NCBI GenBank assembly: GCA_017395245.1
Contig: JAFPVR010000011.1
Location: 54,659-118,658, forward strand
Length of the DNA stretch: 64,000 bases
Direction of reading: 5' to 3'
Origin: Bacteroidales bacterium
Lineage (GTDB): Bacteria; Bacteroidota; Bacteroidia; Bacteroidales; WCHB1-69
Position numbers and translations under genes: made by a program. The stretch's first letter is position 1; every line of letters starts with the position of its first letter. The notes below the pieces were generated by a model. That model was not told the DNA's origin and searched no databases. It saw only the letters and a program-made list of their open reading frames with translations. This document shows positions 5,791-29,887 of the stretch, one piece after another.

Positions 5791-5851
5791 ATCACGAAAC
5801 AATAGGTCTTTTTGATTTATCCCGAACACCAATCCCGGTCATTTCCAGCCG

Positions 5852-5859
5852 CAAAAGTA
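5852..5859 (-). promoter_or_regulatory. -7 box TACTTTTG on minus strand (5242-5790 gene)
   Basis: Plus strand CAAAAGTA in the divergent intergenic region. Confidence 0.5.
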
Positions 5860-5900
5860 AAAATATTTTTCATACGCATGAATAGTTTTGAGTTTTTTTG

Positions 5901-5908
5901 TAATTTTG
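5901..5908 (+). promoter_or_regulatory. -7 box TAATTTTG (5932-7596 gene)
   Basis: TAnnTTTG, 24 nt before the ATG. Confidence 0.55.
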
Positions 5909-5931
5909 CGCTTTCAAGTTGGCTTTGGATT

Positions 5932-7596
5932 ATGAAGAGAATTACATTGTTTTGCTGTATTGTGTGCATAGCCATCTGTGGTTATGCCAGACATGATGTC
6001 ATCTACATCTGCCAGGGTGAAGTGTATGAATGGGATATCAGTGAATATGCTACACCTGGTGATACTCTCGTGTATGCGAGTGGTCCTATCGATTGGACTT
6101 TCTTCTATCAAGAGGCACAGTATGATACCGTGGTTGGAAATATTGTGTCGCTATCACCGTCTATGGATAGGGCATACAAGCTCATATCTATCAATGGAAG
6201 TGATTCTGTGATAAGTGACTGTCCAGTCTATGTGACTTTGCATATCAAGGCACCTCCTACTATCACTATCGATTCTATCAAGCATGTCACATGTCCTGAT
6301 GGAGCATTTTATCCTTATATGGATGGAAGTTTTCATGTGAGCTTAGATGATTCTGTACAAAATTATGCATGGATAAGAGTGGAGGTGGATACACCATTTT
6401 TTTTTGTCCATTATGCTTATGACTCTGTGACACTAACTAGTTTAAGGTCAGGAACTTATAATGTAGTAGCACATGGAGTTAATGGTTGTCACTATTATGA
6501 TAGTGTAACTATTGAACAACCGGAGCCATGGGTTTGGATTGAGGATTCTCTGTATGTAGATACTGTCTGTTTTGGAAATTCAGGATGCCTTAATATTCCT
6601 GTATATGGTGGAACTCCTCCGTGGTATTTTACATGGTTTTATTTTGAAAATACATCAAATGGCTTGGATACAGTAATATTGGAGGATACTACTCGTTTAG
6701 GTTGTGGATTATATTCAGGTATATTGTATAGAGTATGGATGTATGATTCTAGAGGTTGTAAAGCGGGAGGTAATGAGATATTTTCATTAACAGGGTATCT
6801 CTACGAATGGGTGGAAGACAGTACTCATATCATCACAACCGACAGTATAGCCTGCTATGGTGGAGAATTCATGGTGCAAGCACAGAGTATAGGAGAAGGT
6901 ATATATACCTGGCATGTAGGAGACATATCAGATAGTATCAACTACTGGACAGGAGTCTATGGAGACTCCATGTTTGTAGCGGACTATCTCACTCCACCAA
7001 TGCTAGAGCCTACATGGGTGTATGCAGAATTCTCTGACCAGCATCATTGTGTTAGTCGTGACTCTATCTGGGTGGAAGTATATAATCCTGATGTATCACT
7101 ATCTATCCTGACTGTTACAATTGTCACAGATTCTAGCTGTACAGTACATGTCTCTCCACCTGGAGGGAATCTGTATCTCGATGATGCACTAATCTCGTAT
7201 AATATCCCAGAGAATTTCACATTTTCTACTGCTGGAATTTCAGTAGGAGAACATATGCTGAAATATTCAGGAATATTTGGAAGCGAGATAGGATTGGCAT
7301 GTGAGGATGAAATTTCTCAGCCAATTCAGGTGGAAATTAATCCATTTGTACCAAATTGGGAATACAATATCTCAATCTATCCGAATCCAGTGACAACCAC
7401 TCTAAACTTGGTTAGTACAGAGATTTCTGATTTTGAATTATCAATCTTGGATATGACAGGAAAGGTAATCAAGACAGAGAGGATGCTGGATCAGAATTTC
7501 GTATTTGATGTCTCGGATTTAGCATCGGGGATGTATATGCTTCGTCTTGTATCTCATGATGGAGCAAGCAAGGTAGTTAAATTCGTGAAGAGGTAA
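5932..7596 (+). CDS. T9SS type-A sorting-domain protein with SprB-like Cys repeats
   Basis: Start at MKRITLFCCIVCIAICGYA (signal peptide). Internal C.G..G...V.GG.PP..F.W repeats. C-terminal IYPNPVTTTLNL...GMYMLRLVSHDGASKVVKFVKR matches the Por/T9SS CTD pattern. Confidence 0.75.
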   Translation: MKRITLFCCIVCIAICGYARHDVIYICQGEVYEWDISEYATPGDTLVYASGPIDWTFFYQEAQYDTVVGNIVSLSPSMDRAYKLISINGSDSVISDCPVYVTLHIKAPPTITIDSIKHVTCPDGAFYPYMDGSFHVSLDDSVQNYAWIRVEVDTPFFFVHYAYDSVTLTSLRSGTYNVVAHGVNGCHYYDSVTIEQPEPWVWIEDSLYVDTVCFGNSGCLNIPVYGGTPPWYFTWFYFENTSNGLDTVILEDTTRLGCGLYSGILYRVWMYDSRGCKAGGNEIFSLTGYLYEWVEDSTHIITTDSIACYGGEFMVQAQSIGEGIYTWHVGDISDSINYWTGVYGDSMFVADYLTPPMLEPTWVYAEFSDQHHCVSRDSIWVEVYNPDVSLSILTVTIVTDSSCTVHVSPPGGNLYLDDALISYNIPENFTFSTAGISVGEHMLKYSGIFGSEIGLACEDEISQPIQVEINPFVPNWEYNISIYPNPVTTTLNLVSTEISDFELSILDMTGKVIKTERMLDQNFVFDVSDLASGMYMLRLVSHDGASKVVKFVKR

Positions 7597-7715: not shown

Positions 7716-9146
7716 ATGCTAATAGGAAGAGAAAAAGAGCAACAAATTCTAAAAGAAGCACTTACAGATGAGTATTCTCAGTTTATCGCTGTGTATGGTC
7801 GTCGCCGTGTCGGGAAGACATTTCTGATACGCGAGTCGTATGACTATCATTTTACATTCCAGTTCACAGGAGCAGCTAAAACTCATACAAAAAAACAACT
7901 GGCACGCTTTCGCATGGCATTAAAAGAACATGGATTGACAGACTTACCACCCGTATTAACCAATTGGATGACTGCCTTTTCTGAACTCAAGCGTTTCATT
8001 TCGCTACAACCCGAAGGTAAAAAAGTTATATTCCTTGACGAGCTACCTTGGATGGATGCACCGCGTTCCGGTTTTCTTTCCGAACTTGAATCTTTTTGGA
8101 ACGGATGGGCTTCAGCCAGAAAAGACATCGTCTTTGTGGTCTGTGGTAGTGCCACATCTTGGATGGTGAAAAAGATAATCAAAAACAAAGGTGGACTACA
8201 TAACCGACTCACCCACCGTATTGCACTAAAACCCTTTTCACTTCGCCTATGCGAAGAAATGATGGAGTCGCGCGGAATTGAGATGACTCGAAAGCAAATC
8301 CTGAATGGATATATGATACTCGGTGGAATCCCGTATTATTGGAGTCTGCTGAATAAAGGCGCCAGCCTCTCACAAGAAATAGATCGCCTTATTTTTTCAG
8401 AAGATGGCGACATGCACGACGAATTCAGCATGCTTTACGCCTCACTTTTCAAGAAACCAGATCCTTACATCAAGATTATTAGCTTGTTAGCTGAAAAAAA
8501 AGAAGGAATGACCCGGTTGGAAATCATTGAGAAAGGGAAATTGGACGACAATGGTGCTTTGTCTGAAATATTGAAGGAACTCGAGTGGTGCGGATTCATC
8601 CGTGGCTATTCCATGTTAGGCAAACAGGTGAAGGATGAAATATTCCAACTTATTGATCACTATACCCTATTTTATTATGAGTTCATTCAGGGTAAGCGTC
8701 ATGGCAAGAACTTCTGGCAGGCCATGGAAGGCAAGCCGCAGTACAACAACTGGTGTGGACGTGCTTTCGAACGTACTTGTTTATGGCATATTGACCAAAT
8801 CAAACAAAAACTCGGAATCAGCGGCGTATTAACCAACGAGTACGCTTGGCGTTATAATCCAAAGAATAATCCTTCTGCAACAGCCAGCGAAGGAGTGCAA
8901 ATAGACCTGCTTATAGATCGAAGTGACGGCATCATAGACCTCTGCGAGATAAAATATTCAAACTACAAATTCACCATTACTGAAGCCTATCAGGAAAAAT
9001 TAAGTCGTCGGAAAAGCATTTTTGCAGAAGTTTCAAAGACAAAAAAAGCCCTTCACACGGTATTCGTGACAACCGATGGCTTAGCACATAACGCATATTC
9101 AGGCAATATCCAAAACGAAGTTTGCCTGAACGATTTATTTATGTAA
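7716..9146 (+). CDS. AAA ATPase (archaeal-ATPase/DUF234-type 'ATP-binding protein')
   Basis: Walker A YGRRRVGKTFL and Walker B IFLDELPWM. Paralogue of 43705-45162. Confidence 0.8.
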   Translation: MLIGREKEQQILKEALTDEYSQFIAVYGRRRVGKTFLIRESYDYHFTFQFTGAAKTHTKKQLARFRMALKEHGLTDLPPVLTNWMTAFSELKRFISLQPEGKKVIFLDELPWMDAPRSGFLSELESFWNGWASARKDIVFVVCGSATSWMVKKIIKNKGGLHNRLTHRIALKPFSLRLCEEMMESRGIEMTRKQILNGYMILGGIPYYWSLLNKGASLSQEIDRLIFSEDGDMHDEFSMLYASLFKKPDPYIKIISLLAEKKEGMTRLEIIEKGKLDDNGALSEILKELEWCGFIRGYSMLGKQVKDEIFQLIDHYTLFYYEFIQGKRHGKNFWQAMEGKPQYNNWCGRAFERTCLWHIDQIKQKLGISGVLTNEYAWRYNPKNNPSATASEGVQIDLLIDRSDGIIDLCEIKYSNYKFTITEAYQEKLSRRKSIFAEVSKTKKALHTVFVTTDGLAHNAYSGNIQNEVCLNDLFM

Positions 9147-11764: not shown

Positions 11765-11906
11765 ATTACGTTTATTTTCAATTACTTACATACACAATTA
11801 ACCAGCGGTGTCGAATGATTGTTTCGAACCGCCGCTGTCATATAGCAAATAATTTGCCAAAAATGTCACAGGAGCTTCGGCATTCCTGCCAAAGTCGTTA
11901 TTGTCG

Positions 11907-11937
11907 TTTTGCGGCAAGAATGCCGCATCTCCTAAAA
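11907..11937 (+). repeat. Hairpin element TTTTGCGGCAAGAATGCCGCATCTCCTAAAA (family 2)
   Basis: TGCGGCA-AGAA-TGCCGCA stem-loop just upstream of the module-1 promoter box. Confidence 0.8.
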
Positions 11938-11942
11938 AAATG

Positions 11943-11950
11943 TATTTTTG
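11943..11950 (+). promoter_or_regulatory. -7 box TATTTTTG (module 1)
   Basis: TAnnTTTG, 21 nt before GTG 11971. Identical context in module 2. Confidence 0.65.
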
Positions 11951-11970
11951 CCGAATAAAACAACAACAAG

Positions 11971-14244
11971 GTGAGAGCCATCAAATTCATACTCTGTGGG
12001 TTATTATTGTGGTCGCTGGCCGTCGGGCTGCGAGCGCAGTGCCCGGATTTTATGGATTTGAACAGTGAAAATGTGCGCTGCTATTATGGAATGACCTACA
12101 ATCCTATGTTAGACACAGGGGTGGTGGCTGGACGACATACTCTCATTACGCAGCAGGGCACCGACTTTCGGACGAATCACGAACTGCCGCTTCTTCCAGC
12201 GGGTGAAACTGCTGTCATAAGGTTAGGAAACGACCTGTCAGGGGCGGAAGCCGAATCTATCGTATATACCTTCACCGTTGACCCCGACAACTCCATCCTA
12301 CTGATAAAATATGCCGTGGTGCTGGAAAATCCCAATCATGAGAGTCCGGCACAACCCCGTTTCATCATCCGGATGCTTGACGAGAATAACGAACTGCTTG
12401 ATCCTTGTATGGAATATGACGTCACCTCGTCCGACAATCTTCCTGGTTTCCAGTCGTTTGGAAGTATCCAATGGAGACCTTGGACCAACAACGGCTTTGA
12501 CCTCTCCACGTATGCAGGAGAGACCGTCAAGTTGCAGCTCATCACCTATGATTGCAGTTGGGGCGCCCACTTCGGATACGCCTACTTCACGGCCTCCTGC
12601 ATCAGCAACCGGCTCTCCTTGGATAGCTGCGACGGAAACCAAGTCACCTTGTCCGCGCCTGCGGGCTTCGAAAGCTACAACTGGAGCAACGGTGCCACCA
12701 CGGAAACCACCACCTTTACCGTGCAGGGCAATTCGACCGTCAACTGCGCCATAAGCACCGTCACCGGATGCCTGTTCACGCTTTCCGCCATCATCACCTC
12801 GCAGAATATCCCGGGAGAGGACCTCGTCTTGTACGATACAATCTGCGAAGGGGAACCGTATCAGAACAACGGCTTCGATCTGCCACCCGTTGACCATCCT
12901 GGAATCAACGTTTTCCACAACACATACGTCAACCTATCCAACTGTTCCGACGACATTACCGCGACGCTCTACCTCTATGCGAAACAGCGTTATTTCCATA
13001 TCTATGACATGGCTTGCGAAGGGAACAACTATGACGACAACGGGTTCCATTTCACAAATCTGACAGTGGGCGAAATCGTTGATACTAACTATGTTACTAT
13101 TGCTAACGATTGTGATTCCATTACGGTGTTGCACCTCACTGTCAATTCCTCTTTTACATTGGATAATGTTATCAACGGTCCGACAGAGGTTTGCAGTAAC
13201 ACCTCGGGAAATTACTATTTGGCTAATCCGTTAGGGCTCACCTCCTACTTTTGGAATGTTCCTGACGGGGTGGAAATCGTTTATGGGCAAGGTACCAGCG
13301 TCGTCCAGCTTTTTTTCTCGCAGACGGCGCCCAACCCCTCGCATATTTCGCTGACGGGTGCTAACGGGTGCGGAAATGCCTCCACCCCGCTTGATGTGAC
13401 GGTACATCCTTCCTATATGAATATTGTTCACGATACGGTGTGTTCGGGAGAGACCTATTCGCAGTATGGCTTTGACCTCGGAGTGTTGAACGAAGCGGGA
13501 AATTTTGTACACACACGGACGGAAAGCTCTGCATACGGCTGCGAAAATGTTGATATTCTGCTTCTTTTCGTGTCGGAAACCCCGCCGGTGTCGGTCCTTG
13601 CCGATCCGCAAGAGCTTTGTTTGGGCGAAACGACCGAGCTGCACGCCGCAGGTTCGCAATCGTCCGTCACCCTGTTATCACAGTTGCCGAAAGTTTGGGT
13701 GGGCGACATCCTCTGCACCGACAACAGTTTTGTGCATCCGCAAGACTGGCCCTGCGGCAAAACAGCCATGGGAATCGTCTTTTATGTGGATAGTACCGGT
13801 GAACATGGATGGGCGGTCAATCTGCAAGACGAGCCTGGCACCTATTCTTGGGCTGGTAATTCTTCTCCGCTGGACGACCCCTCGCTGACCTACTACAACT
13901 ACGGGAGATTCGCGTTGGAGAATATGGACGGGCTCACGAACACGTTCGTCATCCGGCAGTATGGGAACAGCGAAGATTACCCAGCCGCATACGCCGTGGA
14001 TTTTGACCAAGGCTGGTATCTGCCTGCCGCCGGACAAGCCTATCACCTTTATGCCGAACTACCTCGGGTGAACATCTCTTTGCAATTGGCTGGAGGAACC
14101 CCTTTCCCAATGAATTCCTCTTGGGTTTATTGGACTTCTACTATTGGTAGCATCATCAAAGTGTGGGTGCTGGACAATCAGCATGGACTTTATTCCTCGG
14201 TAATGAATCATCCGTATTTGGTGCGAAGCGTTCGTAGTTTTTAA
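11971..14244 (+). CDS. Large secreted Cys-repeat protein with C-terminal DUF1566-like domain (module copy 1, protein A)
   Basis: GTG start. Signal peptide MRAIKFILCGLLLWSLAVGLRAQC. Repeated YDTICEGxxYxxxGF...C(D/E)(S/N)(I/V) modules. C-terminal VGDILCTD...GWAV...VDFDQGWYLPAAGQ...YWTS...VRSVRSF. Paralogue of 15949-18261. Confidence 0.8.
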   Translation: MRAIKFILCGLLLWSLAVGLRAQCPDFMDLNSENVRCYYGMTYNPMLDTGVVAGRHTLITQQGTDFRTNHELPLLPAGETAVIRLGNDLSGAEAESIVYTFTVDPDNSILLIKYAVVLENPNHESPAQPRFIIRMLDENNELLDPCMEYDVTSSDNLPGFQSFGSIQWRPWTNNGFDLSTYAGETVKLQLITYDCSWGAHFGYAYFTASCISNRLSLDSCDGNQVTLSAPAGFESYNWSNGATTETTTFTVQGNSTVNCAISTVTGCLFTLSAIITSQNIPGEDLVLYDTICEGEPYQNNGFDLPPVDHPGINVFHNTYVNLSNCSDDITATLYLYAKQRYFHIYDMACEGNNYDDNGFHFTNLTVGEIVDTNYVTIANDCDSITVLHLTVNSSFTLDNVINGPTEVCSNTSGNYYLANPLGLTSYFWNVPDGVEIVYGQGTSVVQLFFSQTAPNPSHISLTGANGCGNASTPLDVTVHPSYMNIVHDTVCSGETYSQYGFDLGVLNEAGNFVHTRTESSAYGCENVDILLLFVSETPPVSVLADPQELCLGETTELHAAGSQSSVTLLSQLPKVWVGDILCTDNSFVHPQDWPCGKTAMGIVFYVDSTGEHGWAVNLQDEPGTYSWAGNSSPLDDPSLTYYNYGRFALENMDGLTNTFVIRQYGNSEDYPAAYAVDFDQGWYLPAAGQAYHLYAELPRVNISLQLAGGTPFPMNSSWVYWTSTIGSIIKVWVLDNQHGLYSSVMNHPYLVRSVRSF

Positions 14245-14253
14245 AACCTGGAA

Positions 14254-15840
14254 ATGATGAAGAAAGTGCTCTTGTTTGTGTTTGCGCAGCTCCTCTTCGG
14301 ATGGACCACCGCCCAAATCTATCATGTGGGCGATTTGTACACTGCCGAGGACGGTTCTAAGGGTATTGTCTTCTATGTGTTTCCTGACGGCAGCGGATGG
14401 GCCGTGGCACTCCAAAACTTACCGGACAAACCTTGGATCCCCCCTCCTTACGCAGACATCCCAAACCTTCCGAATCTCAATGGCGAATACCCACAGACCC
14501 TTTTGGCGGATACGGCGGGATATTCCAACACTCAAATCATTCGTGAGTTCGTGGGTGCAGGTGCCCAATGTGCTGCCAATGCCGTGGATTTTGAGAACGG
14601 ATGGTATCTGCCAGCCATCGGACAATTGTGCATTCTTTATGCCCAACTGCCTTTGATAGAGCAGTCTCTGCTTTCCGCAGGGGGAAGTTCTTTGGTGGGA
14701 ATCGACTATTTTAGCAGCTCCGAATCCGATTATGCAGTCTGGGCGGTCAACTTCTCAAACGATCTTCCCCCTACCAATGATGGCTACTCTTCCATCGATT
14801 CGCAATCGGGAAAAATCCAAACCGTAACAAAAACACTTCCTTTCCTCGCCAGAGCTATACGTACTATTCCGGCTCCGGTGAACCATTACGACACCACCCT
14901 GACTTATCTCTGGAATACGGGGGACACGGAACCCCATTTTCAAGTGACACCCGAACAGACCACCGATTATTCGGTGACGGTTACCAACGCTTACGGTTGT
15001 TCAAACACGGCATCCACCTCCGTGACGGTGATTGACGGCTCTCCTCAGACCGTCTATGACACTATCTGTCAAGGCACTGCATACAACAACTACGGCTTTA
15101 CCTTGACCGAGAACCAGACCATCGGCATTGCCGACACTTCCTGCACGCGCACGGTCGCCATCAATAGCTGTGAAAGCGAGCTCACACTGCAGCTCACCTT
15201 ACGTTCCGCTGACTTCGTCTCCTACACGCAACATGCCTGCGAAAATTTCGTCTGGAACGGGATTTCTTATTCCGAAGAAGGTTCTTATACACAATCGCTT
15301 AGCAACCGATTTGGCTGCGACAGCATTGTGGAAATGCAACTTTTCTTGGGGGACACCTCTGTGAGTATCCTCCTGTCCGGAGATTTCTGCGACCAGTTTT
15401 CTGCGGAGCTCTTCGCAAGCGAGGGCATGGACGACTACCTTTGGAGTACCGGCGAGCAGACCCCGCAGATTGTGGTCTCGGCACCCGGAACGTACCGCGT
15501 GACCGCTTCTGTGGATGGTTGCGATGCCACGTCCCAAATCACGATAGCCCCTTGCGAGCTGAATATTTACCTCCCCAACGCCATCACCCCTTCCCTCAGC
15601 GATGGCCTGAACGATGCTTTCTGCCTTCCCGATGCCTATAAACCTCTTCTCAACGAATTTGAAATCAGCATTTTCAACCGTTGGGGCGAGATGGTATATT
15701 ACTCCACCGACAAAGAATTCCGTTGGAAGGGCGAGGTGAAGGGTAAGATCTTCTACAACAACGTTTACAATTACCTAATCCGCTACACCAATCTGAACGG
15801 CAAACCGGAGGTTCTAATCGGCACGATTACGGTGTTGTAG
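14254..15840 (+). CDS. T9SS type-B sorting-domain protein with N-terminal DUF1566-like domain (module copy 1, protein B)
   Basis: Signal peptide, then HVGDLY...GWAV...VDFENGWYLPAIGQL...ARAIR and Cys modules. C-terminal YLPNAITPSLSDGLNDAF...FNRWGEMVY...ITVL matches the gliding-motility C-terminal (CHU_C/TIGR04131-type) domain. Starts 9 nt after protein A. Confidence 0.85.
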   Translation: MMKKVLLFVFAQLLFGWTTAQIYHVGDLYTAEDGSKGIVFYVFPDGSGWAVALQNLPDKPWIPPPYADIPNLPNLNGEYPQTLLADTAGYSNTQIIREFVGAGAQCAANAVDFENGWYLPAIGQLCILYAQLPLIEQSLLSAGGSSLVGIDYFSSSESDYAVWAVNFSNDLPPTNDGYSSIDSQSGKIQTVTKTLPFLARAIRTIPAPVNHYDTTLTYLWNTGDTEPHFQVTPEQTTDYSVTVTNAYGCSNTASTSVTVIDGSPQTVYDTICQGTAYNNYGFTLTENQTIGIADTSCTRTVAINSCESELTLQLTLRSADFVSYTQHACENFVWNGISYSEEGSYTQSLSNRFGCDSIVEMQLFLGDTSVSILLSGDFCDQFSAELFASEGMDDYLWSTGEQTPQIVVSAPGTYRVTASVDGCDATSQITIAPCELNIYLPNAITPSLSDGLNDAFCLPDAYKPLLNEFEISIFNRWGEMVYYSTDKEFRWKGEVKGKIFYNNVYNYLIRYTNLNGKPEVLIGTITVL

Positions 15841-15864
15841 AGACGCACGGCCGTACGTCTCTAC
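15837..15864. repeat. REP-like palindrome (1 mismatch)
   Basis: GTAGAGACGCACGGCCGTACGTCTCTAC. Its TAG (15838-15840) is the stop of 14254-15840. Confidence 0.9.
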
Positions 15865-15884
15865 GGCTGAAATCGTTAATATCG

Positions 15885-15914
15885 TTTTGCGGCAGGAATG
15901 TCGCATCTCCTAAA
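15885..15914 (+). repeat. Hairpin element, family 2 (degenerate: GCGGCAGGAATGTCGCA)
   Basis: Same position relative to the module-2 promoter box. Confidence 0.75.
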
Positions 15915-15920
15915 AAAATG

Positions 15921-15928
15921 TATTTTTG
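15921..15928 (+). promoter_or_regulatory. -7 box TATTTTTG (module 2)
   Basis: Same AAAAAAATGTATTTTTGCCGAATAAAA context as module 1. Confidence 0.65.
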
Positions 15929-15948
15929 CCGAATAAAACTCCAACAAG

Positions 15949-18261
15949 GTGAGGACCATCAAATTCATACTCTGCGGGTTATTGTTGTGGTCGCTGGCCG
16001 GTGGGCTGCGGGCGCAGTGTCCGGATTTTATGGATTTGACGAGCAGTGCGGTGACGGGCTATTACTCAACAAATGGATATCACGTTACTTCCAGTCTTGT
16101 AATGAGTGTCGGCATTATGCCGGGAAGACACACGCTTATCACACAACAAGGGACCGACCCACGAACGGGGGATCAATTGCCGTTACTTCCGGACGGGGAA
16201 AACGCTGTGGTGAAATTGGGCAACGAGCAGGTGGGCGGAGAAACCGAGTCCCTGGTTTATACCTTCACTGTTGATCCTGACAATTCCGTTTTGCTGTTGA
16301 AATATGCAGTTGTGCTGGAGGATCCCGGCCATGTGGAAATGCTCCAACCCCATTTTCTCATACAGATGCTGGATGCCAACGACGAGCTAATAAGTGACTG
16401 TATGGAATACAATGTCATTTCGTCGCCCTCAATCCCCGGTTTCCAGACATACGATCCGGGAAACGGAATTTTTGTGATGTGGAGGCCTTGGACCCTCAAC
16501 GGTTTTGATTTGTCGGCATACGCGGGGCAGACGGTGAAACTTCGGATCAGCACATACGACTGCGGGGCCGGCGGCCATTTCGGATATGCCTATTTTACCG
16601 CCTCCTGCATCAGCAATCAGCTTTCATTTACGGGCTGTGACGGGGATCAAGTCACCATCAGCGCAACGGAAGGGTTCGAAAGCTATTCTTGGAACAACGG
16701 CAGCACCACACCCACCGCTACCTATTCCATACAGGGGAACACCGGTGCCACTTGCGTTATCAGCACCGTCACCGGATGCCAAATCACGCAGATCGTCACC
16801 TTTGCCCAGGACACCCTCATGCAAGATCAAACTTTTTATGACACCATTTGCGAAGGTATGGATTACCATAACCATGGCTTCAACGTGCCTACCATATCAA
16901 CACCCGGGGATTATACTTTCCTGAATACCTTTTACGATGTGGTAAACTGCGAAGAAGGTGCCACCAATACGTTGTATCTGTATGTCCACCCCCTTTGCAC
17001 GTATATCGATGAAGTGGCGTGTGAAGGTGACACCTTCGATGCCTACGGCTTTCATTACGATCAACTGTCCCCAGGAGAGATTACGGACAGCTTCTCTGTA
17101 ACGCTTCCTTACGGCTGTGAATATACAACAATACTGCATCTCACAGTCAACCCTGCCACTCAAATACCCCAAGTAATCAATGGTCCGAATGTGGTGTGCA
17201 GTGGTACATTGGAAACTTATTCCTTGGAAAACGGTCCTCCCCCATCTTCTGTTTCTTACCACTGGATAGCTCCCAATGGAGTGACAGTCTATAGCGGACA
17301 GGCAACTCCAAGCGCACAAATCTTTTTCATGCCGGATGCCCCTTCTACCGTACAGCTCACGCTCTCTGTTGATAATGGCTGTAACACCACCAATATCCCG
17401 TTTGATGTCGCGGTGGGGACTTCGTACTCCAACATATACAGTGACACGGCTTGTATAGGAAACCCTTACACACAGTATGGGTTTCAGCTTGGAGTACAAG
17501 ACAGTACAGGATTCTTTGTCTATATTCTGAATGACACGACCCAACAGGGGTGCGACAGTATCAGTATTTTGCAGCTGCGTGTCGCAGAGACACCGTCGGT
17601 GGTTGCATTAGCCGACCCGACAGTGCTTTGTATCGGCAGCGAAACCGAACTTCACGCCGTCGGTCCGCAGGCTTCCGTCACCTTGACTTCGGAGTTGCCG
17701 ACGGTCGCGGTGGGCGACATCCTGTGTACGGACGGCACCACTGTTCATCCTGAAGACTGGCCCTGCAATAAAGTGGCCATGGGGGTGGTTTTCTATGTGG
17801 ACACTTCCGGAGATCATGGATGGGCAATCGACTTGCATGATTTGAACACTTCGAGCACCTATTGGTGGGGAGGGATACATGAAGATGTCCAAACTCTGAC
17901 CAACTACGCTTCCCCTGTTTCTGCGTTGAACGATACCAGTGGTTGGCAAAACACGGCTGATATCAGGGCACAAAGCGCCGCATCAATGTATTCATACGAT
18001 GCGGCCATGGCTGTGGATTTCGACAACGGGTGGTATCTGCCCGCCGCAGGTCAGATGTTCCATCTTTATGTTATGCTTTCAGTTGTAAACCATTCCCTGC
18101 AACTTGTCGGAGGAGATCTTTTCTCTTCTGTTGTGTCATGGAAATACTGGACTTCCTCTGAAAGAAACATTGATGATGCATGGTACCTTGCCAAGGAGCA
18201 TGCCATTATTGCTGGGGATAAATATGGTCTTTTCATGGTACGAATGTGCCGTTCATTTTAG
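15949..18261 (+). CDS. Large secreted Cys-repeat protein with C-terminal DUF1566-like domain (module copy 2, protein A)
   Basis: GTG start. MRTIKFILCGLLLWSLAGGLRAQCPDFMDL. Colinear with 11971-14244 along its whole length. Ends ...MVRMCRSF. Confidence 0.8.
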   Translation: MRTIKFILCGLLLWSLAGGLRAQCPDFMDLTSSAVTGYYSTNGYHVTSSLVMSVGIMPGRHTLITQQGTDPRTGDQLPLLPDGENAVVKLGNEQVGGETESLVYTFTVDPDNSVLLLKYAVVLEDPGHVEMLQPHFLIQMLDANDELISDCMEYNVISSPSIPGFQTYDPGNGIFVMWRPWTLNGFDLSAYAGQTVKLRISTYDCGAGGHFGYAYFTASCISNQLSFTGCDGDQVTISATEGFESYSWNNGSTTPTATYSIQGNTGATCVISTVTGCQITQIVTFAQDTLMQDQTFYDTICEGMDYHNHGFNVPTISTPGDYTFLNTFYDVVNCEEGATNTLYLYVHPLCTYIDEVACEGDTFDAYGFHYDQLSPGEITDSFSVTLPYGCEYTTILHLTVNPATQIPQVINGPNVVCSGTLETYSLENGPPPSSVSYHWIAPNGVTVYSGQATPSAQIFFMPDAPSTVQLTLSVDNGCNTTNIPFDVAVGTSYSNIYSDTACIGNPYTQYGFQLGVQDSTGFFVYILNDTTQQGCDSISILQLRVAETPSVVALADPTVLCIGSETELHAVGPQASVTLTSELPTVAVGDILCTDGTTVHPEDWPCNKVAMGVVFYVDTSGDHGWAIDLHDLNTSSTYWWGGIHEDVQTLTNYASPVSALNDTSGWQNTADIRAQSAASMYSYDAAMAVDFDNGWYLPAAGQMFHLYVMLSVVNHSLQLVGGDLFSSVVSWKYWTSSERNIDDAWYLAKEHAIIAGDKYGLFMVRMCRSF

Positions 18262-18272
18262 CTTTTCCTGCC

Positions 18273-19727
18273 ATGATGAAAAAGATGTTTCTGTTTCTGT
18301 TGTTGCAAAGCATTCTTTTAATGGGGAATGCCCAGCTTTATCATGTCGGAGACCTCTATATTGCAGAAGACGGCTCTCAAGGCATCGTATTCTTTGTTCA
18401 GGAAGATGGCAGTGGCTGGGCGGTTGCATTGAATGACTTGTCCACGTCGATTCCTTGGTCACCCAATAGTTTCAATGTCCCAGGTTTGAGCGACGAAGAA
18501 GATCTGTTTGCGCCCATATCCTCCACAAATGATTTCTCTGGTTATACGAACACACAACAGATACGCAACACATTTGGCGTATCGTCCAGTTATGCAGCCG
18601 GCGCTGTGGATTTCAACCACGGGTGGTATTTACCGTCCATTCATCAACTTTACATTTTATATGCACAAATGCCTTTCATTGAACAAGCATTGCTCAATGC
18701 CGGCGGTTCAACATTGGTTTTTTCAGCCTCAGGATATTCTCAAGGGTATTGGAGTAGTTCCGAAGCCAGTACCTCCCAAGCTTGGGCACTCAATTTTGGT
18801 CTCCAATTAGGATCTGGAGTACCCATGCAAATGTCGAAAACAACTTATCAAAATCAAAAAGTTCGTGCCGTGCATGATTTCCCCTCTCCGAATAACGTTT
18901 ACGATACCACACTCACTTACAGCTGGAACACCGGCTCCACCGAACCGCATTTCTTCGACGTTCCGCTGCAGACCACAAACTACACCGTCACGGTCACAAA
19001 CGCCTACGGCTGCACGAACACCGATTCTGCCAGCGTGATGGTCATCGACAACAACCCGCAGACGATATACGATACGGTCTGTCAAGGTTCGACGTATAAC
19101 AACTACGGTTTTACGTTGAGTGCGCAGGAGACGGCGGAAGTGGGGGAGATTGTCCGCACACAAACGCTTGCCGCTGCTGGCTGCGAGAGCGAAATCACCC
19201 TCTTCCTCACGGTGGTGCCTCACGATATAGTCTATTTGGAGCAAACCGCCACTGATTCTTTGGTTTGGAATGGCGTAACCTACACGGAGGAAGGCACTTA
19301 CACCCAATACTTCAACAACCAATACGGATGTGACAGCACGGTTATCCTAACCCTTACACTCGATGGCGGTATTGACCCCGACCCTGATCCTGATCCCGGC
19401 CCCGGTCCTGAACCCGACACCATACCCTTCGGTGAAAATGACACCCTGATGATTTACCTTCCCAATGCCATCACACCCACGCGCAACGACGGCCTCAACG
19501 ACTATTTCTGTCTCCCCGAAGTGTACAGACCTCTGATCAGCACTTTTGAGATTAAGATTTACAACCGGTGGGGCACTTTAGTTTACCACGCCACCGACAA
19601 AAATTTCCAATGGGACGGCAGAATCAATGGCAAAATCTATTTCAACACGGTGTATAGCTATCGTATTGACTTTGAGGATATAATCGGAAGACCGTATATT
19701 CTCAGAGGCATAATTACCGTATTGTAG
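18273..19727 (+). CDS. T9SS type-B sorting-domain protein with N-terminal DUF1566-like domain (module copy 2, protein B)
   Basis: Start at MMKKMFLFLLL. Colinear with 14254-15840. Has an extra DPDPDPDPGPGPEPD linker. C-terminal YLPNAITPTRNDGLNDYF...YNRWGTLVY...ITVL. Confidence 0.85.
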   Translation: MMKKMFLFLLLQSILLMGNAQLYHVGDLYIAEDGSQGIVFFVQEDGSGWAVALNDLSTSIPWSPNSFNVPGLSDEEDLFAPISSTNDFSGYTNTQQIRNTFGVSSSYAAGAVDFNHGWYLPSIHQLYILYAQMPFIEQALLNAGGSTLVFSASGYSQGYWSSSEASTSQAWALNFGLQLGSGVPMQMSKTTYQNQKVRAVHDFPSPNNVYDTTLTYSWNTGSTEPHFFDVPLQTTNYTVTVTNAYGCTNTDSASVMVIDNNPQTIYDTVCQGSTYNNYGFTLSAQETAEVGEIVRTQTLAAAGCESEITLFLTVVPHDIVYLEQTATDSLVWNGVTYTEEGTYTQYFNNQYGCDSTVILTLTLDGGIDPDPDPDPGPGPEPDTIPFGENDTLMIYLPNAITPTRNDGLNDYFCLPEVYRPLISTFEIKIYNRWGTLVYHATDKNFQWDGRINGKIYFNTVYSYRIDFEDIIGRPYILRGIITVL

Positions 19728-19751
19728 AGACGCACGGCCGTGCATCTCTAC
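19724..19751. repeat. REP-like palindrome (1 mismatch)
   Basis: GTAGAGACGCACGGCCGTGCATCTCTAC. Its TAG (19725-19727) is the stop of 18273-19727. Confidence 0.9.
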
Positions 19752-19771
19752 GATTGAAATCGTTATTGTCG

Positions 19772-19802
19772 TTTTGCGGCAAGAATGCCGCAGCTCCTAA
19801 AA
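19772..19802 (+). repeat. Hairpin element, family 2
   Basis: TTTTGCGGCAAGAATGCCGCAGCTCCTAAAA after the second module's REP. Downstream sequence then diverges into the aminotransferase promoter. Confidence 0.8.
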
Positions 19803-19831
19803 TATCCTTCCGTATGTATTCGAATTTTCAG

Positions 19832-19839
19832 TATTTTTG
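19832..19839 (+). promoter_or_regulatory. -7 box TATTTTTG (aminotransferase)
   Basis: TAnnTTTG, 36 nt before ATG 19875. Confidence 0.6.
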
Positions 19840-21140: not shown

Positions 21141-21271
21141 AAGGGCCGAAGGCCTGAAGTATGCTAACCCAGGGTGAGCGATAGCGAGCCCTGGGATATA
21201 CAAGAAGATAATACCAAAAGGGCTGCAAGCCCGAAACGTGTCAACCCAGGGTGAACGCAGTGAGCCCTGGG
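21141..21271 (+). repeat. Two tandem double-hairpin elements with about 77-bp period
   Basis: AAGGGCCGAAGGCC...AACCCAGGGTGAGCGATAGCGAGCCCTGGG and AAGGGCTGCAAGCCC...AACCCAGGGTGAACGCAGTGAGCCCTGGG. Confidence 0.85.
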
Positions 21272-21286
21272 TTAATCCAAAAAAAT

Positions 21287-24200
21287 ATGAAAAAACTCAC
21301 AACATTCATCATCTTCATCGCGATAGCCGCAGCCGGCTACGCGCAGAACATCCGCTACACCCTGCTCAGCTCCAACCAGAGCGAGGCGGTGGTGCGCGTC
21401 GAGTTCGGCACCTATCACACCGAAACCGTGACCGTCGATGGCACGGAGATGCAGACGCTGCATTCGGCGGACGCCTATCCTGTCCTCAAAAAAGGCAGCC
21501 CCGAACTGCTGCAGTCGGCCTTCTCGCTTATCGTGCCCGAAGGCAGCCAGCCCACGGCGGAGGTCATCGACGCGCAGTTCACGGAAGTGGCCAACTTCAA
21601 GCTCGCCCCGTCCAAGGGCAAGATTTACCGCAATGTCAACCCAGCGAGCATCCCTTACACCAAAAACACCGACTACCAGTCGAGTGGTTTCCTATTAGGC
21701 AGTGCGGCGGCCATGGGGGATATGTATCAACTGCGTGATTACCATGGCATTAACGTGAAAGTGTTCCCGTTCGACTACGACCCGTCGGCGCAGACGCTGA
21801 AGGTCTATTCCGCCATCACCGTAAAGGTTCGCTTCCACGGCAATCGGTCGATAGCCACGGCGGAAAAGAACAACCGCACGTTCGATGCCGTTTACAGAGA
21901 GCAGTTCCTGAACTACAACGGTTTGCGCAGCACTCCGGTTACCGAGGAGGGCGGCATCCTCATTATCGCCCCCGAGAACTTCATCCCGGCCATGCAACCT
22001 TATGCCGACTGGAAAATCCGCAACGGTTTCCCCACGGAAATCGTTCCTTTGGCTACTGCCGGCAGCAATGCGACTGCGATAAAGAGCTTCATCTCAACGT
22101 ATTACAACGAGCATAACTTAGCTTTCGTCATCATTGTGGGCGACAATGCGCAGTTCCCCACCCCGACGGTCAGCGGCAACAAGTCCGACAACTACTTCAC
22201 CGAGATTGCCGGCAACGACTCCTATCCGGACATCATCTTAGGTAAGATTTCCGCCGAGAATGTCTCCCAAGTGGAGACACAGGTGCAGCGATTCATTGAA
22301 TACGAGCAGAATCCGCCCGCCACGGAGCATTTTCCGGTGTTCATAGGCATTGCCTCCAACCAAGGCCCCGGCGACAACAATGAGTACGACTATCAGCATA
22401 TCCGCAATATTGACAACAAGTTGCAAGGTTATACCTACACCTCTGGTTATGAGTTCTTTGAGGGTAGCCAAGGCGGTTTGGACGCTTCCGGCAATCCGAC
22501 GGCAAACATGGTCGCCACGGCGGTCAACAGTGGGGTGGGCATCATCAGTTATTGCGGCCACGGTGATGTGCAGATGTGGGTCACCTCAAACTTTACCAAC
22601 AGCAATGTCAATTCGTTAACCAATGTCGGCAAACTGCCGTTCATCCTCTCCGTGGCCTGCGTCAACGGCGAGTATCACACGGGCACCTGTTTCGCGGAAG
22701 CCTGGCTACGCGCAACTCAAAACGGACAGCCCACAGGTGCCGTCAGCATGATCGGCTCCACTATCAACCAGCCGTGGAACTCTCCGATGTGCGCCCAGGA
22801 CAGAATGATTGACCTCCTGGTCGGAACTACTCCCGGTGAACAATATTTCACGTATGGTGGCATCGTCTTCAACGGCATGATCCACATGCTGGATGTCTAT
22901 AACGATGTGGAAGTCTTCCGCACCTGGCTCATTTTCGGCGACCCGACCCTGCTGATGCGCACGGCTGTGCCTGCACAACTTGAAGTATCCCACAATGAGG
23001 TTGTTCCCGCCGGCGTCCCGTCCGTCACCATCTCCTCAACCGTGGAAAATGCCCGAATCACTGTTACCTACGGAACGGACGTTATCGCCATCGGAAACAT
23101 TCAGAATGGGGAGTACACGTTGACCTTCAACCAAACGTTCCTGCCCATGGACACCCTTCACGTGCTGGCCACCGCCCCCAACTATTTGCCTTACGAAGGA
23201 TTCATCACCTTTATTCCCAACGAAGGTCCCTACGTGATTTTAGGCGAGTTGTCCATGACCGACGATAATGTTCCTTTCGTCAATAATCGCCATAACAACC
23301 TGCCTGAATATGGTAAAAGGTTGAAAGTGTCACCCCAAATCATCAATATCGGCAATGAAGCCGCTTCCAATGTCCGCATCAAAATCTCCACAGAAGATCC
23401 GTATATCTCATTGAATACCAACGAAATCACGGTGCCTGCATTGGCCGCTCACGATACTTTGGATTCTGACAATGCCTGGTTTATGCTCACGGTCCAGAAC
23501 GTCGTGCCTGCCAACCACAACGCCGTCATCAAAATGGAAATCATCCGCAACAATGACACGCTGGTGCAGAACAAGACGGTGAAACTTTACGCCCCAACAT
23601 TGACCATCACTTCCATGTCCATTGACGATGCAGTGATGGGCAATGGCAACCATCGGGTGGACTACGGCGAGACGTTCAATTGTATTGTCACAATCGCCAA
23701 CACCGGCAACATGCCGATTGTGGGCGGTGCTTTCTATGTGGATAATATCGGCGATGAAATCTCTTTCCAAGAAGGTTACATGCCTTTCCCGGCGATAGAT
23801 GTCAATGGAACCGCCACCGTGACCTTCGAGGCCACCGCCAACAGCTCCATCCAAGAGCCGACCATCGCTTACCTCAGATCAACCCTTTGGGTGAACTACT
23901 ACTTTGCTGAAAAGTATTTCCCCGTCAAAATCGGCGAAATCACCGAGGATTGGGAGACGGGCGACTTCTACAACAGGAATTGGATAAACACTTCGTCCAT
24001 TCCGTGGACGATTGTCACAGCAAATCCCTACGAAGGCTCCTATTGCGCAAAATCCGGTGCCATCGGCAACAGCGCCCAAACCCGTCTGACCATCACCGAC
24101 ACGGCCACCGTCAACGATAGCATCTCCTTCTACTACAAGGTGTCAAGCGAGGAAAATTACGACAAACTGACTTTCAAAATTGACGGGCAGACGAAAGACG

Positions 24201-24628
24201 AATGGAGTGGCAACATCGGCTGGACCCGTGCGGTTTATCCCGTGGAAGCCGGCGTGCACACTTACCAGTGGACCTACTCGAAAGACAACTACTATTCGCA
24301 AGGCCATGACTGTGCTTACCTCGATGCCATCGAGTTTCCCTGCGGCAAGGTGAACCATCCCGTGAGTGTCAACGAATTTACCTTGAATGCCAACTCCTTG
24401 CAAGTTTGGCCGAACCCCGCCACGGACTATGTCCATGTGGTGACGGGCGACGAAGGAGAAGCATACACCTACCGTTTCTACGACCTCAACGGACGGCTCC
24501 TGCAAGGCGGCCGCTTGATGGGCAACGACACGGAAATCAATATAAGCAACTATACATCAGGCACGTACATCCTGCAAGTGGAGGATGAAAGCCATCGCAT
24601 GCAAACAGCGAAAATTGTGAAGAAATAA
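21287..24628 (+). CDS. Peptidase C25 (gingipain-like) with T9SS type-A sorting domain
   Basis: Signal peptide MKKLTTFIIFIAIAAAGYAQ. Propeptide-like N-domain. Catalytic-region motifs YCGHGD and SVACVNGEY. C-terminal LQVWPNPATDYVHV...GTYILQVEDESHRMQTAKIVKK. Confidence 0.85.
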   Translation: MKKLTTFIIFIAIAAAGYAQNIRYTLLSSNQSEAVVRVEFGTYHTETVTVDGTEMQTLHSADAYPVLKKGSPELLQSAFSLIVPEGSQPTAEVIDAQFTEVANFKLAPSKGKIYRNVNPASIPYTKNTDYQSSGFLLGSAAAMGDMYQLRDYHGINVKVFPFDYDPSAQTLKVYSAITVKVRFHGNRSIATAEKNNRTFDAVYREQFLNYNGLRSTPVTEEGGILIIAPENFIPAMQPYADWKIRNGFPTEIVPLATAGSNATAIKSFISTYYNEHNLAFVIIVGDNAQFPTPTVSGNKSDNYFTEIAGNDSYPDIILGKISAENVSQVETQVQRFIEYEQNPPATEHFPVFIGIASNQGPGDNNEYDYQHIRNIDNKLQGYTYTSGYEFFEGSQGGLDASGNPTANMVATAVNSGVGIISYCGHGDVQMWVTSNFTNSNVNSLTNVGKLPFILSVACVNGEYHTGTCFAEAWLRATQNGQPTGAVSMIGSTINQPWNSPMCAQDRMIDLLVGTTPGEQYFTYGGIVFNGMIHMLDVYNDVEVFRTWLIFGDPTLLMRTAVPAQLEVSHNEVVPAGVPSVTISSTVENARITVTYGTDVIAIGNIQNGEYTLTFNQTFLPMDTLHVLATAPNYLPYEGFITFIPNEGPYVILGELSMTDDNVPFVNNRHNNLPEYGKRLKVSPQIINIGNEAASNVRIKISTEDPYISLNTNEITVPALAAHDTLDSDNAWFMLTVQNVVPANHNAVIKMEIIRNNDTLVQNKTVKLYAPTLTITSMSIDDAVMGNGNHRVDYGETFNCIVTIANTGNMPIVGGAFYVDNIGDEISFQEGYMPFPAIDVNGTATVTFEATANSSIQEPTIAYLRSTLWVNYYFAEKYFPVKIGEITEDWETGDFYNRNWINTSSIPWTIVTANPYEGSYCAKSGAIGNSAQTRLTITDTATVNDSISFYYKVSSEENYDKLTFKIDGQTKDEWSGNIGWTRAVYPVEAGVHTYQWTYSKDNYYSQGHDCAYLDAIEFPCGKVNHPVSVNEFTLNANSLQVWPNPATDYVHVVTGDEGEAYTYRFYDLNGRLLQGGRLMGNDTEINISNYTSGTYILQVEDESHRMQTAKIVKK

Positions 24629-28759: not shown

Positions 28760-29887
28760 TTATATCCTCTGCAACCAGTGGTTCATGAACCGGTCATAAA
28801 CAATGTAGCCGTTGGGCGTCTGATAAAGCAACTCTTTGTCGTTCAAAACCTCCAAGGCGGTTTTCACACTGCTGGCGCCCGGCAAACCATGCTTCTTGAT
28901 GAATTCCTTGCCCATGGGCTGTTCCACCAACCCTTCCTTGGCCACAGCTCGGAGCAATGAGAATTGGTTTTCGGTAAGGAATGACACAAGGCTCTCATAC
29001 TGAGGCGATTTGCTCTCCACAACATTCCATATCGTTTCTCGAAGTTGCGCGGAAGATGACACGGACTTGAACTTCTCATAGAGTCTGTTCAAAACTGATT
29101 GGATATACCACGTATAGCCTTCGTATATGTCGTAAAGTTCATGAAACACTTCACGATCCAGCACACCCCTCCTTGCCTCGAAAAACCGGTTGGCAAATTG
29201 ATAGTAAGTCTCTTCGTCAAGAGGCTTAAGATTCATCATGTCAGTGCTTTGATAGAATGGCCGTTTGGGGGAAGCGAACATCTCGGACATAAGGTGCTTC
29301 CTGCTCCCCGAGAAGATGAAATGGATGTTGTGCGAGAACTGAATGTAGGATCGGAGCATCGCTTCGGTACCGGATTCGGGATATTCATTGATTTGCTGGA
29401 ACTCGTCAATAGCAATGAAAACTTCGTGCTGAATCTTGTTGAGATAGGTGAAAATGCTCCTAATGGTCATTTCCGATTGCGTCGGATCCACATTTAATGT
29501 CACATTCGGCATCCCGGTAAGGACGTCCACTCCAAGAACCGGCCTCAAAGAGCCGAGCATCTCCAACATCTTTTTGCCCAACATTTTGCTTTTGGAGAGC
29601 GTTTCGTTGAGCACCGCTGTACCCAACATTCTCACAAATTCGCTCTGACTTTTCGTGGGAAATATGTCGATATAGATGCAAATCGCATCCTTGTTTTCGG
29701 ATTTGATTTGGTGAAAAGTGTTCCAAATCAGCCCGGTTTTTCCTAATCTTCTGGGAGAAATAAGCGTAATATTGCGCCCATTATAGAGCATTGAAGTCAT
29801 ACTTTCGGTCTCTTCAATGCGGTCGCAGAAGTATTCCGGACTCTCGTAACCTTGGCATATAAAGGGATTTACAATCTTTTTCTTCAT
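28760..29887 (-). CDS. AAA ATPase (archaeal-ATPase/DUF234-type, short form)
   Basis: Walker A SPRRLGKTGL and Walker B FIAIDEFQ. Winged-helix-like C-terminus. Confidence 0.8.
   Translation of the reverse strand: MKKKIVNPFICQGYESPEYFCDRIEETESMTSMLYNGRNITLISPRRLGKTGLIWNTFHQIKSENKDAICIYIDIFPTKSQSEFVRMLGTAVLNETLSKSKMLGKKMLEMLGSLRPVLGVDVLTGMPNVTLNVDPTQSEMTIRSIFTYLNKIQHEVFIAIDEFQQINEYPESGTEAMLRSYIQFSHNIHFIFSGSRKHLMSEMFASPKRPFYQSTDMMNLKPLDEETYYQFANRFFEARRGVLDREVFHELYDIYEGYTWYIQSVLNRLYEKFKSVSSSAQLRETIWNVVESKSPQYESLVSFLTENQFSLLRAVAKEGLVEQPMGKEFIKKHGLPGASSVKTALEVLNDKELLYQTPNGYIVYDRFMNHWLQRI

Follow-up and report, generated by a model that had tools for sequence, protein, structure and literature searches.

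A proposed split adhesin of the type IX secretion system with paired DUF1566-type domains in Bacteroidales

The T9SS (type IX secretion system) moves folded proteins, and each of its cargo proteins is held to require a C-terminal domain (CTD) of its own. Described cargo with type-B CTDs includes SprB, which is paired with SprF in Flavobacterium johnsoniae, and PG1035, which is paired with PorP in Porphyromonas gingivalis. Here, we describe a locus in a 64,000-nucleotide stretch of DNA from a Bacteroidales bacterium (NCBI GenBank assembly GCA_017395245.1, contig JAFPVR010000011.1; hereafter the window), in which a gene A followed by a gene B occurs twice in tandem. The proteins B1 and B2 resemble SprB and PG1035 in having a Sec signal, Ig-like repeats and a CHU_C/TIGR04131 domain, and the proteins A1 and A2 lack a CTD. 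A domain of the DUF1566 type is shared by the C-terminus of A (DUFc) and the N-terminus of B (DUFn). We propose with moderate confidence, from sequence comparison, that each A-B unit encodes a split T9SS adhesin, in which A would serve as tip and B as anchor, with a non-covalent joint formed by the cognate DUFc and DUFn domains.

Ordinary type-B cargo is a single chain, as it also is in distant relatives of the locus consisting of an N-terminal domain, PKD repeats and a CTD. Unlike SprB-SprF and PG1035-PorP, the system proposed here would combine a CTD-less tip with a CTD-bearing anchor, divided in some loci into as many as four proteins, and would have a dedicated domain pair wherever the chain is broken; it lacks an adjacent PorP/SprF-like gene. 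PorP-like outer-membrane proteins retain type-B cargo in uncleaved form, and the same mode of surface anchoring through the CTD is expected for B (PMC9143113). For orphan type-B cargo, the sharing of a distant shuttle is documented (PMC12618676).

The closest described counterpart of the shared domain is the C-terminal domain of Lcl from Legionella (PF07603; 8Q4E, 8QK8), which by profile belongs to the same family and has the GW(Y)LP...YW(S/T)S...VRxVR signature. It is a C-type-lectin-like domain that oligomerises as a homotrimer and binds glycosaminoglycans (PMC11162425). However, Lcl is secreted by the type II secretion system as a homotrimer with a collagen stalk and binds the glycosaminoglycans of the host, whereas the locus described here has two subtypes of the domain, c and n, which are 35% identical and lie one at the C-terminus and the other at the N-terminus of adjacent proteins, where we propose that they heterodimerise.

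Other likenesses concern the arrangement and not homology. The cohesin-dockerin pairs of cellulosomes likewise join separately secreted modular proteins at the cell surface by cognate, diversified docking pairs, and do so in a similar setting of polysaccharide-associated rumen and gut bacteria. However, the folds are unrelated, export proceeds by Gram-positive Sec rather than the T9SS of Bacteroidota, and the binding was demonstrated by experiment, whereas here it is proposed from sequence comparison. In Tat hitch-hiking, as with PaoABC and hydrogenase subunits, a signal-less subunit is exported bound to a signal-bearing partner as a folded complex (PMC4273604). That process uses a different membrane and machinery; here, each piece needs its own Sec signal, and co-translocation through the T9SS is hypothetical. 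The tip-shaft-anchor plan of the type V pili of Bacteroidales (FimA/Mfa1) resembles the gene order of the chain loci described below, with a tip (A), an extender (DUFn...DUFc) and an anchor (DUFn...CTD). These pili assemble by protease-triggered strand exchange of lipoprotein precursors, whereas the proteins described here have no lipobox, and a lectin-fold pair and T9SS export are proposed for them.

Domain architecture of the A and B proteins

The original prediction recognized two diverged, colinear units, and all four open reading frames (ORFs) were recovered where it had placed them (Table 1). The unit A1/B1 (11971-15840) is colinear end to end with the unit A2/B2 (15949-19727), A1 and A2 being 52.5% and B1 and B2 47% identical. 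Signal peptides and cleavage sites were read from the sequence and from family conservation for all four proteins, each of which has a cleavage site between A and Q. The signal peptide of A1 comprises residues 1-22 and ends in RA/QC (the slash marks the cleavage), within a motif RA/QCPDF that is invariant across the family. That of B1 comprises residues 1-20 and ends in TA/QI; the B signal peptides, MMKKVLLFVFAQLLFGWTTA and MMKKMFLFLLLQSILLMGNA, each followed by Q, are conserved across the family.

Table 1. Positions of the proteins, domains and leader and repeat elements of the two A-B units in the window
Feature	Position	Strand	Description
A1	11971-14244	+	757 aa, GTG start
A1 N-domain	12037-12618	+	residues 23-216, predicted beta-jelly-roll
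A1 stalk	12619-13683	+	residues 217-571; three Cys modules (YDxxCxGxxY..GF...CDS..L.L.V) and PKD_6 at 13168-13386
A1 DUFc	13684-14241	+	residues 572-757; c subtype, ends VRSVRSF-stop
B1	14254-15840	+	528 aa
B1 DUFn	14314-14877	+	residues 21-208, n subtype
B1 type-B CTD	15559-15837	+	residues 436-528; CHU_C and TIGR04131
A2	15949-18261	+	770 aa, GTG start
A2 N-domain	16015-16632	+	architecture as in A1
A2 stalk	16633-17694	+	architecture as in A1
A2 DUFc	17695-18258	+	architecture as in A1
B2	18273-19727	+	484 aa from ATG; ORF opens at 18246
B2 DUFn	18333-18890	+
B2 modules	18891-19445	+	Asp/Pro-rich linker in module region
B2 type-B CTD	19446-19724	+
Leader element X, copy 1	11904-11937	+	perfect 7-4-7 palindrome TGCGGCA-AGAA-TGCCGCA, operator-like
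Leader element X, copy 2	15882-15915	+	imperfect palindrome
Leader element X, copy 3	19769-19802	+	only the 5' half; the aminotransferase promoter box follows at 19832
TAttTTTG -7 box, unit 1	11943-11950	+	20 nt before A1 start codon
TAttTTTG -7 box, unit 2	15921-15928	+	20 nt before A2 GTG start
Large inverted repeat	11870-11933		grpE/A1 divergent intergenic region; encloses leader copy 1
REP palindrome	15837-15864		overlaps B1 TAG stop; -19.6 kcal/mol
REP palindrome	19724-19751		overlaps B2 TAG stop

At the extreme C-terminus of the B proteins, CHU_C (PF13585) matched with 48.4 bits in B1 and 51.8 bits in B2, above its cut-off of 27, and TIGR04131 matched with 39.6 bits in B2 (above its cut-off of 35) and 32.9 bits in B1 (just under it). 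These matches uphold the type-B CTD that had been predicted for B, and we class B1 and B2 as predicted T9SS type-B cargo. In both B proteins, the DUFn domain (about 190 residues) begins one residue past the predicted mature N-terminus (Q21 in B1) and is followed by PKD-like/Cys modules. An extra Ig-like module of about 65 residues precedes the CTD of B1 (15350-15560, residues ~366-435); its place in B2 (19370-19445) and in most homologues is taken by a short linker rich in Asp and Pro.

For A1 and A2, no CTD of type A (Por_Secre_tail/TIGR04183) or type B was matched in Pfam and NCBIfam, even at E<=1, in agreement with the original view that A carries no sorting signal of its own. PKD_6 (PF19408) was found in the stalks of both A1 (49.6 bits) and A2 (31.1 bits), above its gathering cut-off of 25. 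The AlphaFold 2 (AF2) model of A1 (pLDDT 87.7, pTM 0.58) has the appearance of beads on a string, with a stalk of all-beta beads and a DUFc domain of mixed alpha/beta secondary structure predicted with pLDDT above 90. Foldseek searches with whole A1 returned generic Ig-string matches only. The best of them was the Aureispira grappling-hook protein GhpA (PDB 9FLY and others), a Bacteroidota surface filament of long Ig-like bead strings. The likeness is limited to generic Ig-like repeats (TM about 0.13), and GhpA is a single giant chain with neither the N-domain nor the DUF1566 pair.

The N-domain of A1 modelled alone with high confidence (pLDDT 93.6, pTM 0.90), and its Foldseek neighbours were CBM61/27/11/4/28, MAM, Eph ligand-binding domains and legume lectins at TM values of 0.35-0.55. 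No Pfam or NCBIfam model covers it, only faint InhA-like_MAM matches being found (2/13 members, E 0.003), and a sequence search of the PDB gave chance matches only. From the model, we regard the N-domain as a new family within the CBM/MAM jelly-roll fold class, to which its resemblance appears real but distant, rather than as a member of a curated family. Clustered at 50%, the family has 4,537 representatives, in which the domain mostly lies immediately behind the signal peptide. In A, the N-domain is under purifying selection (dN/dS 0.08). Besides the motif QCPDF, three histidines (H56, H123 and H200 of A1) are invariant in the N-domain (12037-12618, 16015-16632). We propose that the N-domain is the distal ligand-binding tip and that it probably binds glycans.

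The homology between the C-terminal domain of A and the N-terminal domain of B, which the original prediction had noticed from a common motif, was confirmed by profile comparison (hhalign probability 100%, E 2e-49, 35% identity); DUFc has about 186 residues. Its assignment to DUF1566 was also maintained at the family level. Lcl_C was matched by 12/23 family domain members (best E 3e-9) and scored above its cut-off in fused (39.8 bits) and chain (50.3 bits) relatives, many homologues have a precomputed PF07603 match, and the domain profile matched the structures 8q4e, which is the C-terminal domain of Lcl deposited as 'HbP1', with E 6.6e-7 and 4eps with E 1.7e-9. The shared domain is classified on these grounds as a divergent DUF1566 member.

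Split, fused and chained forms among relatives

We compared the window with 86 relative loci, in which every ORF was classed by hidden Markov models (HMMs) for the N-domain, the DUF, the stalk modules and the CTD, with separate HMMs for the DUF subtypes c and n. Split A-B pairs were found in about 30 other loci, belonging to several families and embedded among varied flanking genes, so the linkage of the two genes noted in the window holds in differing contexts. In 18 loci, mostly of Paludibacteraceae, a single ORF of 1367-1393 residues has the order Ndom-stalk-DUFc-(~10 aa)-DUFn-stalk-CTD, and two more such ORFs are truncated by contig ends. The chain loci (L003/4, L020, L023, L025) have A, then one or two DUFn...DUFc proteins and then a DUFn...CTD protein. 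DUF-less single proteins with the order Ndom-PKD repeats-CTD occur in Flavobacteriales and others.

The position of the two subtypes followed a strict syntax. All C-terminal DUFs were of the c type (45/45), and N-terminal DUFs were of the n type in 46/51 cases, the five exceptions being fragments or noise. The middle proteins of chains had the order n...c, and 17 of the 18 fused proteins had DUFc followed directly by DUFn, the remaining one scoring marginally. Every chain member has its own signal peptide, and the CTD is found only on the last gene wherever the end of that gene is on the contig. The junction alignment located the difference between the fused and split forms precisely. Fused proteins read ...VRxV(K/R), about 10 residues and PK(Y/V)K(I/V)GD(L/V)..., whereas in split genes VRSVRSF closes the first protein and the next one opens with a full signal peptide that ends in AQ and precedes xYHVGDLY. 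A stop codon and a signal peptide thus stand in place of the ~10-residue linker. A search of a large database with the fused junction segment gave four matches and no usable fused proteins.

Two of the relative loci had further peculiarities. In Paludibacter jiangxiensis, a cultivable species, a split pair is followed by a 1351-residue protein ending in a weak DUFc-like domain (L031, 13153-17208). In a metagenome-assembled genome from the rumen (L028, 3821-9530), the A gene is interrupted and inverted relative to the rest of the chain, with its N-part on the + strand and the stalk-DUFc part and the chain genes on the - strand. No convincing inverted repeats flank this apparent inversion, which could be a rearrangement or a misassembly.

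The natural fusions raise the question of whether the split form is a product of decay, in which a nonsense mutation interrupted a formerly fused gene, leaving A as a non-functional remnant and B re-initiated. The geometry of the first unit would suit such an event, as A1 and B1 share a reading frame and are separated only by TAA plus 9 nt (14242-14256); in the second unit, the frames of the two genes differ, and the genes overlap or abut. However, B has a full, conserved signal peptide with the A/Q site in every split locus, the split form recurs across families, hundreds of full-length homologues exist for A as for B, and the N-domain of A is under the purifying selection described above. 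In a rough neighbour-joining tree of the N-domain, the DUF-less proteins are basal and the fused proteins group in a single clade inside the split lineages; this suggests that fusion was the secondary event. The tree is not robust, given the recombination at the locus. We consider decay very improbable and largely refuted by these observations.

The fusions and chains suggest how a split adhesin could be assembled. The type-B CTD would carry B through the T9SS, and B would probably be held uncleaved on a PorP-like outer-membrane protein. A would form the distal half, with its Ig-like/Cys stalk and a CBM/MAM-like jelly-roll tip, and its DUFc would dock non-covalently onto the DUFn at the mature N-terminus of B, rebuilding the DUFc-DUFn tandem of the fused relatives. 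A would reach the surface, or stay there, only by way of B. Chain loci would give rise to tip-extender-anchor fibres. The most economical route for A would be assembly of A and B in the periplasm followed by co-translocation, because the fused DUFc-DUFn globule would have to pass the translocon anyway and a pre-assembled A:B complex would add no steric demand. We have less confidence in co-translocation specifically than in the docking model as a whole.

The main alternative to co-translocation is that A docks to B only outside the cell, which A would reach by an unrecognised route or signal of its own, by lysis or in vesicles, before being captured by DUFn. Separate handling of the pieces is conceivable, as each carries a signal peptide, the DUF1566 protein Lcl is secreted and then re-binds the surface (PMC11162425), and no precedent for T9SS co-translocation was found in the literature search. 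On the other hand, A has neither a CTD nor another recognised sorting domain, the fused relatives would cross the T9SS as one polypeptide, so that co-transport would need no new machinery, and the chain loci would require up to three proteins to use the unrecognised route. We judge capture outside the cell to be unlikely, and retain periplasmic assembly of the split adhesin as the preferred route.

Mosaic inheritance of the junction

Comparison with L007, a syntenic relative carrying an A-B-A-B array like that of the window, revealed a mosaic locus. Proteins of the flanking genes share 90-97% identity (dS 0.4-0.9), whereas A1 is 59%, the DUFn of B1 58%, and A2 and B2 about 50-57% identical. 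Such allelic mosaicism, with A and B at about 50-60% identity between strains, fits the earlier reading of the locus as a diversifying surface adhesin. By contrast, the stretch 14850-16000, which covers the rest of B1, the intergenic region and the signal peptide of A2, is 98-100% identical in nucleotides. Its coding parts have a dS of only 0.02-0.06, and the stretch therefore appears younger than the genomic background, implying a recent exchange between lineages. It corresponds to 10600-11750 of L007 (B1 stalk, CTD, REP, leader and A2 signal peptide), against a background of 84-95% identity.

The breakpoints of divergence bracket the junction. Against another relative, L009, A1 follows the background identity up to about 13700, the exact start of DUFc, after which DUFc and DUFn diverge to 46-66%; in the comparison with L007, the boundary of DUFn closes the divergent block. 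Further pairs of loci gave similar pictures. L001 and L014 are 69-82% identical in the flanks and 48% and 52% identical in DUFc and DUFn, respectively. L015 is 98-99% identical to unit 2 of the window in the N-domain and stalk and 72-73% identical in DUFc and DUFn. We quantified this co-inheritance with 15 non-redundant A-B pairs, of which 13 remained after outlier trimming. DUFc and DUFn were correlated with r 0.94 over all pairs and 0.83 after removal of outliers (Mantel 0/5000). The corresponding values were 0.76 and 0.37 for the A stalk and DUFc, and 0.68 and 0.28 for DUFn and the B stalk. The partial correlation of DUFc and DUFn given the other domains was 0.80, and that of the A stalk and DUFc given DUFn was -0.06. 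DUFc and DUFn thus travel together in recombination, across the gene boundary.

We considered whether A and B could simply be independent neighbours, with both DUF1566-type domains acting as lectins for the same external glycan and A remaining periplasmic or vesicular. Co-inheritance would then arise from the common specificity and from adjacency, since adjacent DNA is co-inherited by default. The binding of glycosaminoglycans by the DUF1566/Lcl_C domain of Lcl, and the occurrence of DUF1566 domains as the ligand-binding variable domains of targets of diversity-generating retroelements (DGRs), would agree with a lectin role. However, the correlation across the gene boundary is far higher than that with equally adjacent domains of the same gene, and DNA blocks inside the junction (13996, 14311-14400, 14581) are conserved as strongly as the border blocks; the pattern is therefore not simply due to a missing crossover substrate. 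The strict c-to-n syntax, the fusion exactly at the junction with its short linker and the restriction of the CTD to the last gene of chains are not explained by neighbourhood either, and lectin domains buried in the middle of a fused fibre would make a poor binding tip. Independent neighbours seem to us an improbable explanation, and we retain the docked pair in what follows.

Since high variability marks the final ~40 residues of DUFc and DUF1566 is a recurrent DGR target in gut Bacteroidales, the C-terminal domain of A, putatively of lectin fold, might also be such a target. The variation is instead mosaic and allelic over whole domains and not adenine-specific. Neither a template repeat, nor any near-identical copy of the DUFc/DUFn DNA outside the four domains, was found in the window, and there was no reverse transcriptase among the window ORFs scanned. 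The DGR explanation was rejected and retains hardly any probability.

The original prediction described a duplication with divergence. Within the family, A1 and A2 belong to separate clades, and for this reason we interpret the array, which appears to predate the split from L007, as two old, independently shuffled alleles rather than as a recent duplication. Tandem A-B-A-B arrays were also seen in Paludibacteraceae (L027, 7980-18775; L039, 3409-12328). The two A copies of L027 are sister sequences, indicating that tandem duplication of the unit arose independently more than once. The separately exchangeable cassettes would be the tip (N-domain and stalk), the junction (DUFc and DUFn) and the anchor (B stalk and CTD), and the alleles of all three differ between the tandem units. 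Different junctions within one locus are 46-68% (c) and 47-81% (n) identical, which is compatible with orthogonal docking specificities and is no proof of them.

Several points weigh against the split-adhesin model. The evidence that DUFc binds DUFn is indirect, and the sample for the Mantel analysis is small and made up of related sequences. The co-inheritance could arise in part from mechanically easy crossover sites, or because a common ligand specificity, and not mutual fit, was selected for in both domains. None of the four window proteins reaches the Pfam gathering cut-off of 34.9 bits for Lcl_C (PF07603), with no match in A1 and B1, 15.3 bits in A2 and 24.3 bits in B2. No PorP/SprF-like gene was found among the window ORFs scanned; such a cognate neighbour is frequent for type-B cargo and not obligatory. 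One relative locus (L019, 6265-16547) has an A gene without a same-strand DUFn gene next to it. There, A is followed by a convergent gene on the opposite strand for a CTD protein of 2646+ residues, whose N-terminus is off the contig, a possible exception to the A-then-B order. Finally, the literature search turned up no earlier case in which CTD-less proteins ride on T9SS cargo, and nothing that joins DUF1566 with type IX secretion; the library searched was limited, and its silence is not proof of novelty.

Set against these points, the pairing of A and B through the shared domain is strongly, if indirectly, backed by the natural fusions, the c-to-n syntax of the chains and the co-inheritance of the two domains. 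This comparative evidence considerably strengthens the proposal central to the original prediction; from it, we infer the physical docking, the export route of A, the surface location and the ligand. Beyond the single unit, we tentatively suggest, at slightly less than even confidence, that these loci encode an undescribed mode of T9SS fibre assembly. CTD-less subunits would hitch-hike on, and be held by, a single CTD-bearing anchor via a heterodimeric DUF1566-type pair, some loci would build ordered chains of three or four proteins, and the docking pair would be a cassette of its own, with tips, junctions and anchors shuffled independently between strains.

Leader elements, genomic setting and wider meaning

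Both units are preceded by a common leader, as originally noticed; the stretches 11892-12061 and 15870-16039, which span the leader and the signal-peptide codons, are 91% identical. The leader contains an element, X, which occurs in three copies in the window and is locus-specific. The repeat described earlier as a leader hairpin is real, and an RNA structure is the less likely reading of it: the perfect palindrome lies upstream of a TAnnTTTG box, the consensus of the -7 promoter element of Bacteroidetes, so that it is more plausibly an operator or protein-binding site in the promoter. Scans for sigma-70 promoters and intrinsic terminators gave nothing exceeding shuffled controls. The TAnnTTTG box was found upstream of the A genes only, with none before B1 or B2, and the gap between the A stop and the B start is mostly -4 to +15 nt across loci; therefore, each unit looks like one A-B transcription unit. 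The large inverted repeat around the first leader has 21-bp arms (fold -27.5 kcal/mol, z -4.4) and is not present at leader copies 2 and 3.

The third copy, the 5' half of the leader, is present as reported and had been taken for a recombination junction. This role was rejected. In L007, whose A-B-A-B array is the same, B2 is followed by neither REP nor X, and another element stands upstream of A1; the third copy is therefore a lineage-specific element, not the original duplication junction. The B 3' end stretches 15791-15915 and 19678-19802 are 81% identical, and the third copy may derive from a conversion tract starting in the B 3' end.

The REP palindrome, GTAGAGACG-N10-CGTCTCTAC, folds stably at about -19 to -20 kcal/mol and does overlap the TAG of both B genes. 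It does not mark the module, as nine copies lie at gene ends in the window (1247, 3105, 7599, 15837, 19724, 31962, 36046, 37266, 47853). We rejected it as a module-specific terminator, the other copies being unrelated to the module; it is a generic, genome-wide hairpin, probably a terminator or stabiliser. Rfam had no match anywhere in the window, the REP palindrome included.

The window has a G+C content of 49.6%, and its nearest genomes are uncultured rumen Bacteroidales (RUG538 and a syntenic ENA contig). Ordinary chromosomal genes flank the locus, with grpE-dnaJ on one side and an aminotransferase and a C25 peptidase on the other. Two type-A CTD cargo genes lie on either side, one at 5812-7596 (+; 594 residues with Por_Secre_tail) and the other, the gingipain-like C25 peptidase gene, at 21251-24628 (+). 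Two such genes in 64 kb imply T9SS machinery in the genome. Three paralogous PF01637 (ATPase_2) genes are scattered in the window at 7716-9146 (+), 28760-29887 (-) and 43705-45162 (-).

If the proposed model is true, a widespread family of proteins without a CTD would rely on a CTD-bearing neighbour, the rule of one CTD per cargo would have to take in multi-subunit cargo, and DUF1566, whose general role is unclear, would gain a concrete function as a docking module. The N-domain adds a large uncatalogued family of about 4,500 representatives, which would sit at the tips of surface proteins in Bacteroidota. The natural fused, split and chained variants constitute a testable set, and orthogonal docking pairs might find use in surface display. 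For the abundant Bacteroidales of the rumen and gut, the locus would represent a hypervariable surface locus relevant to adhesion to plant fibre, to other microbes and to phage.

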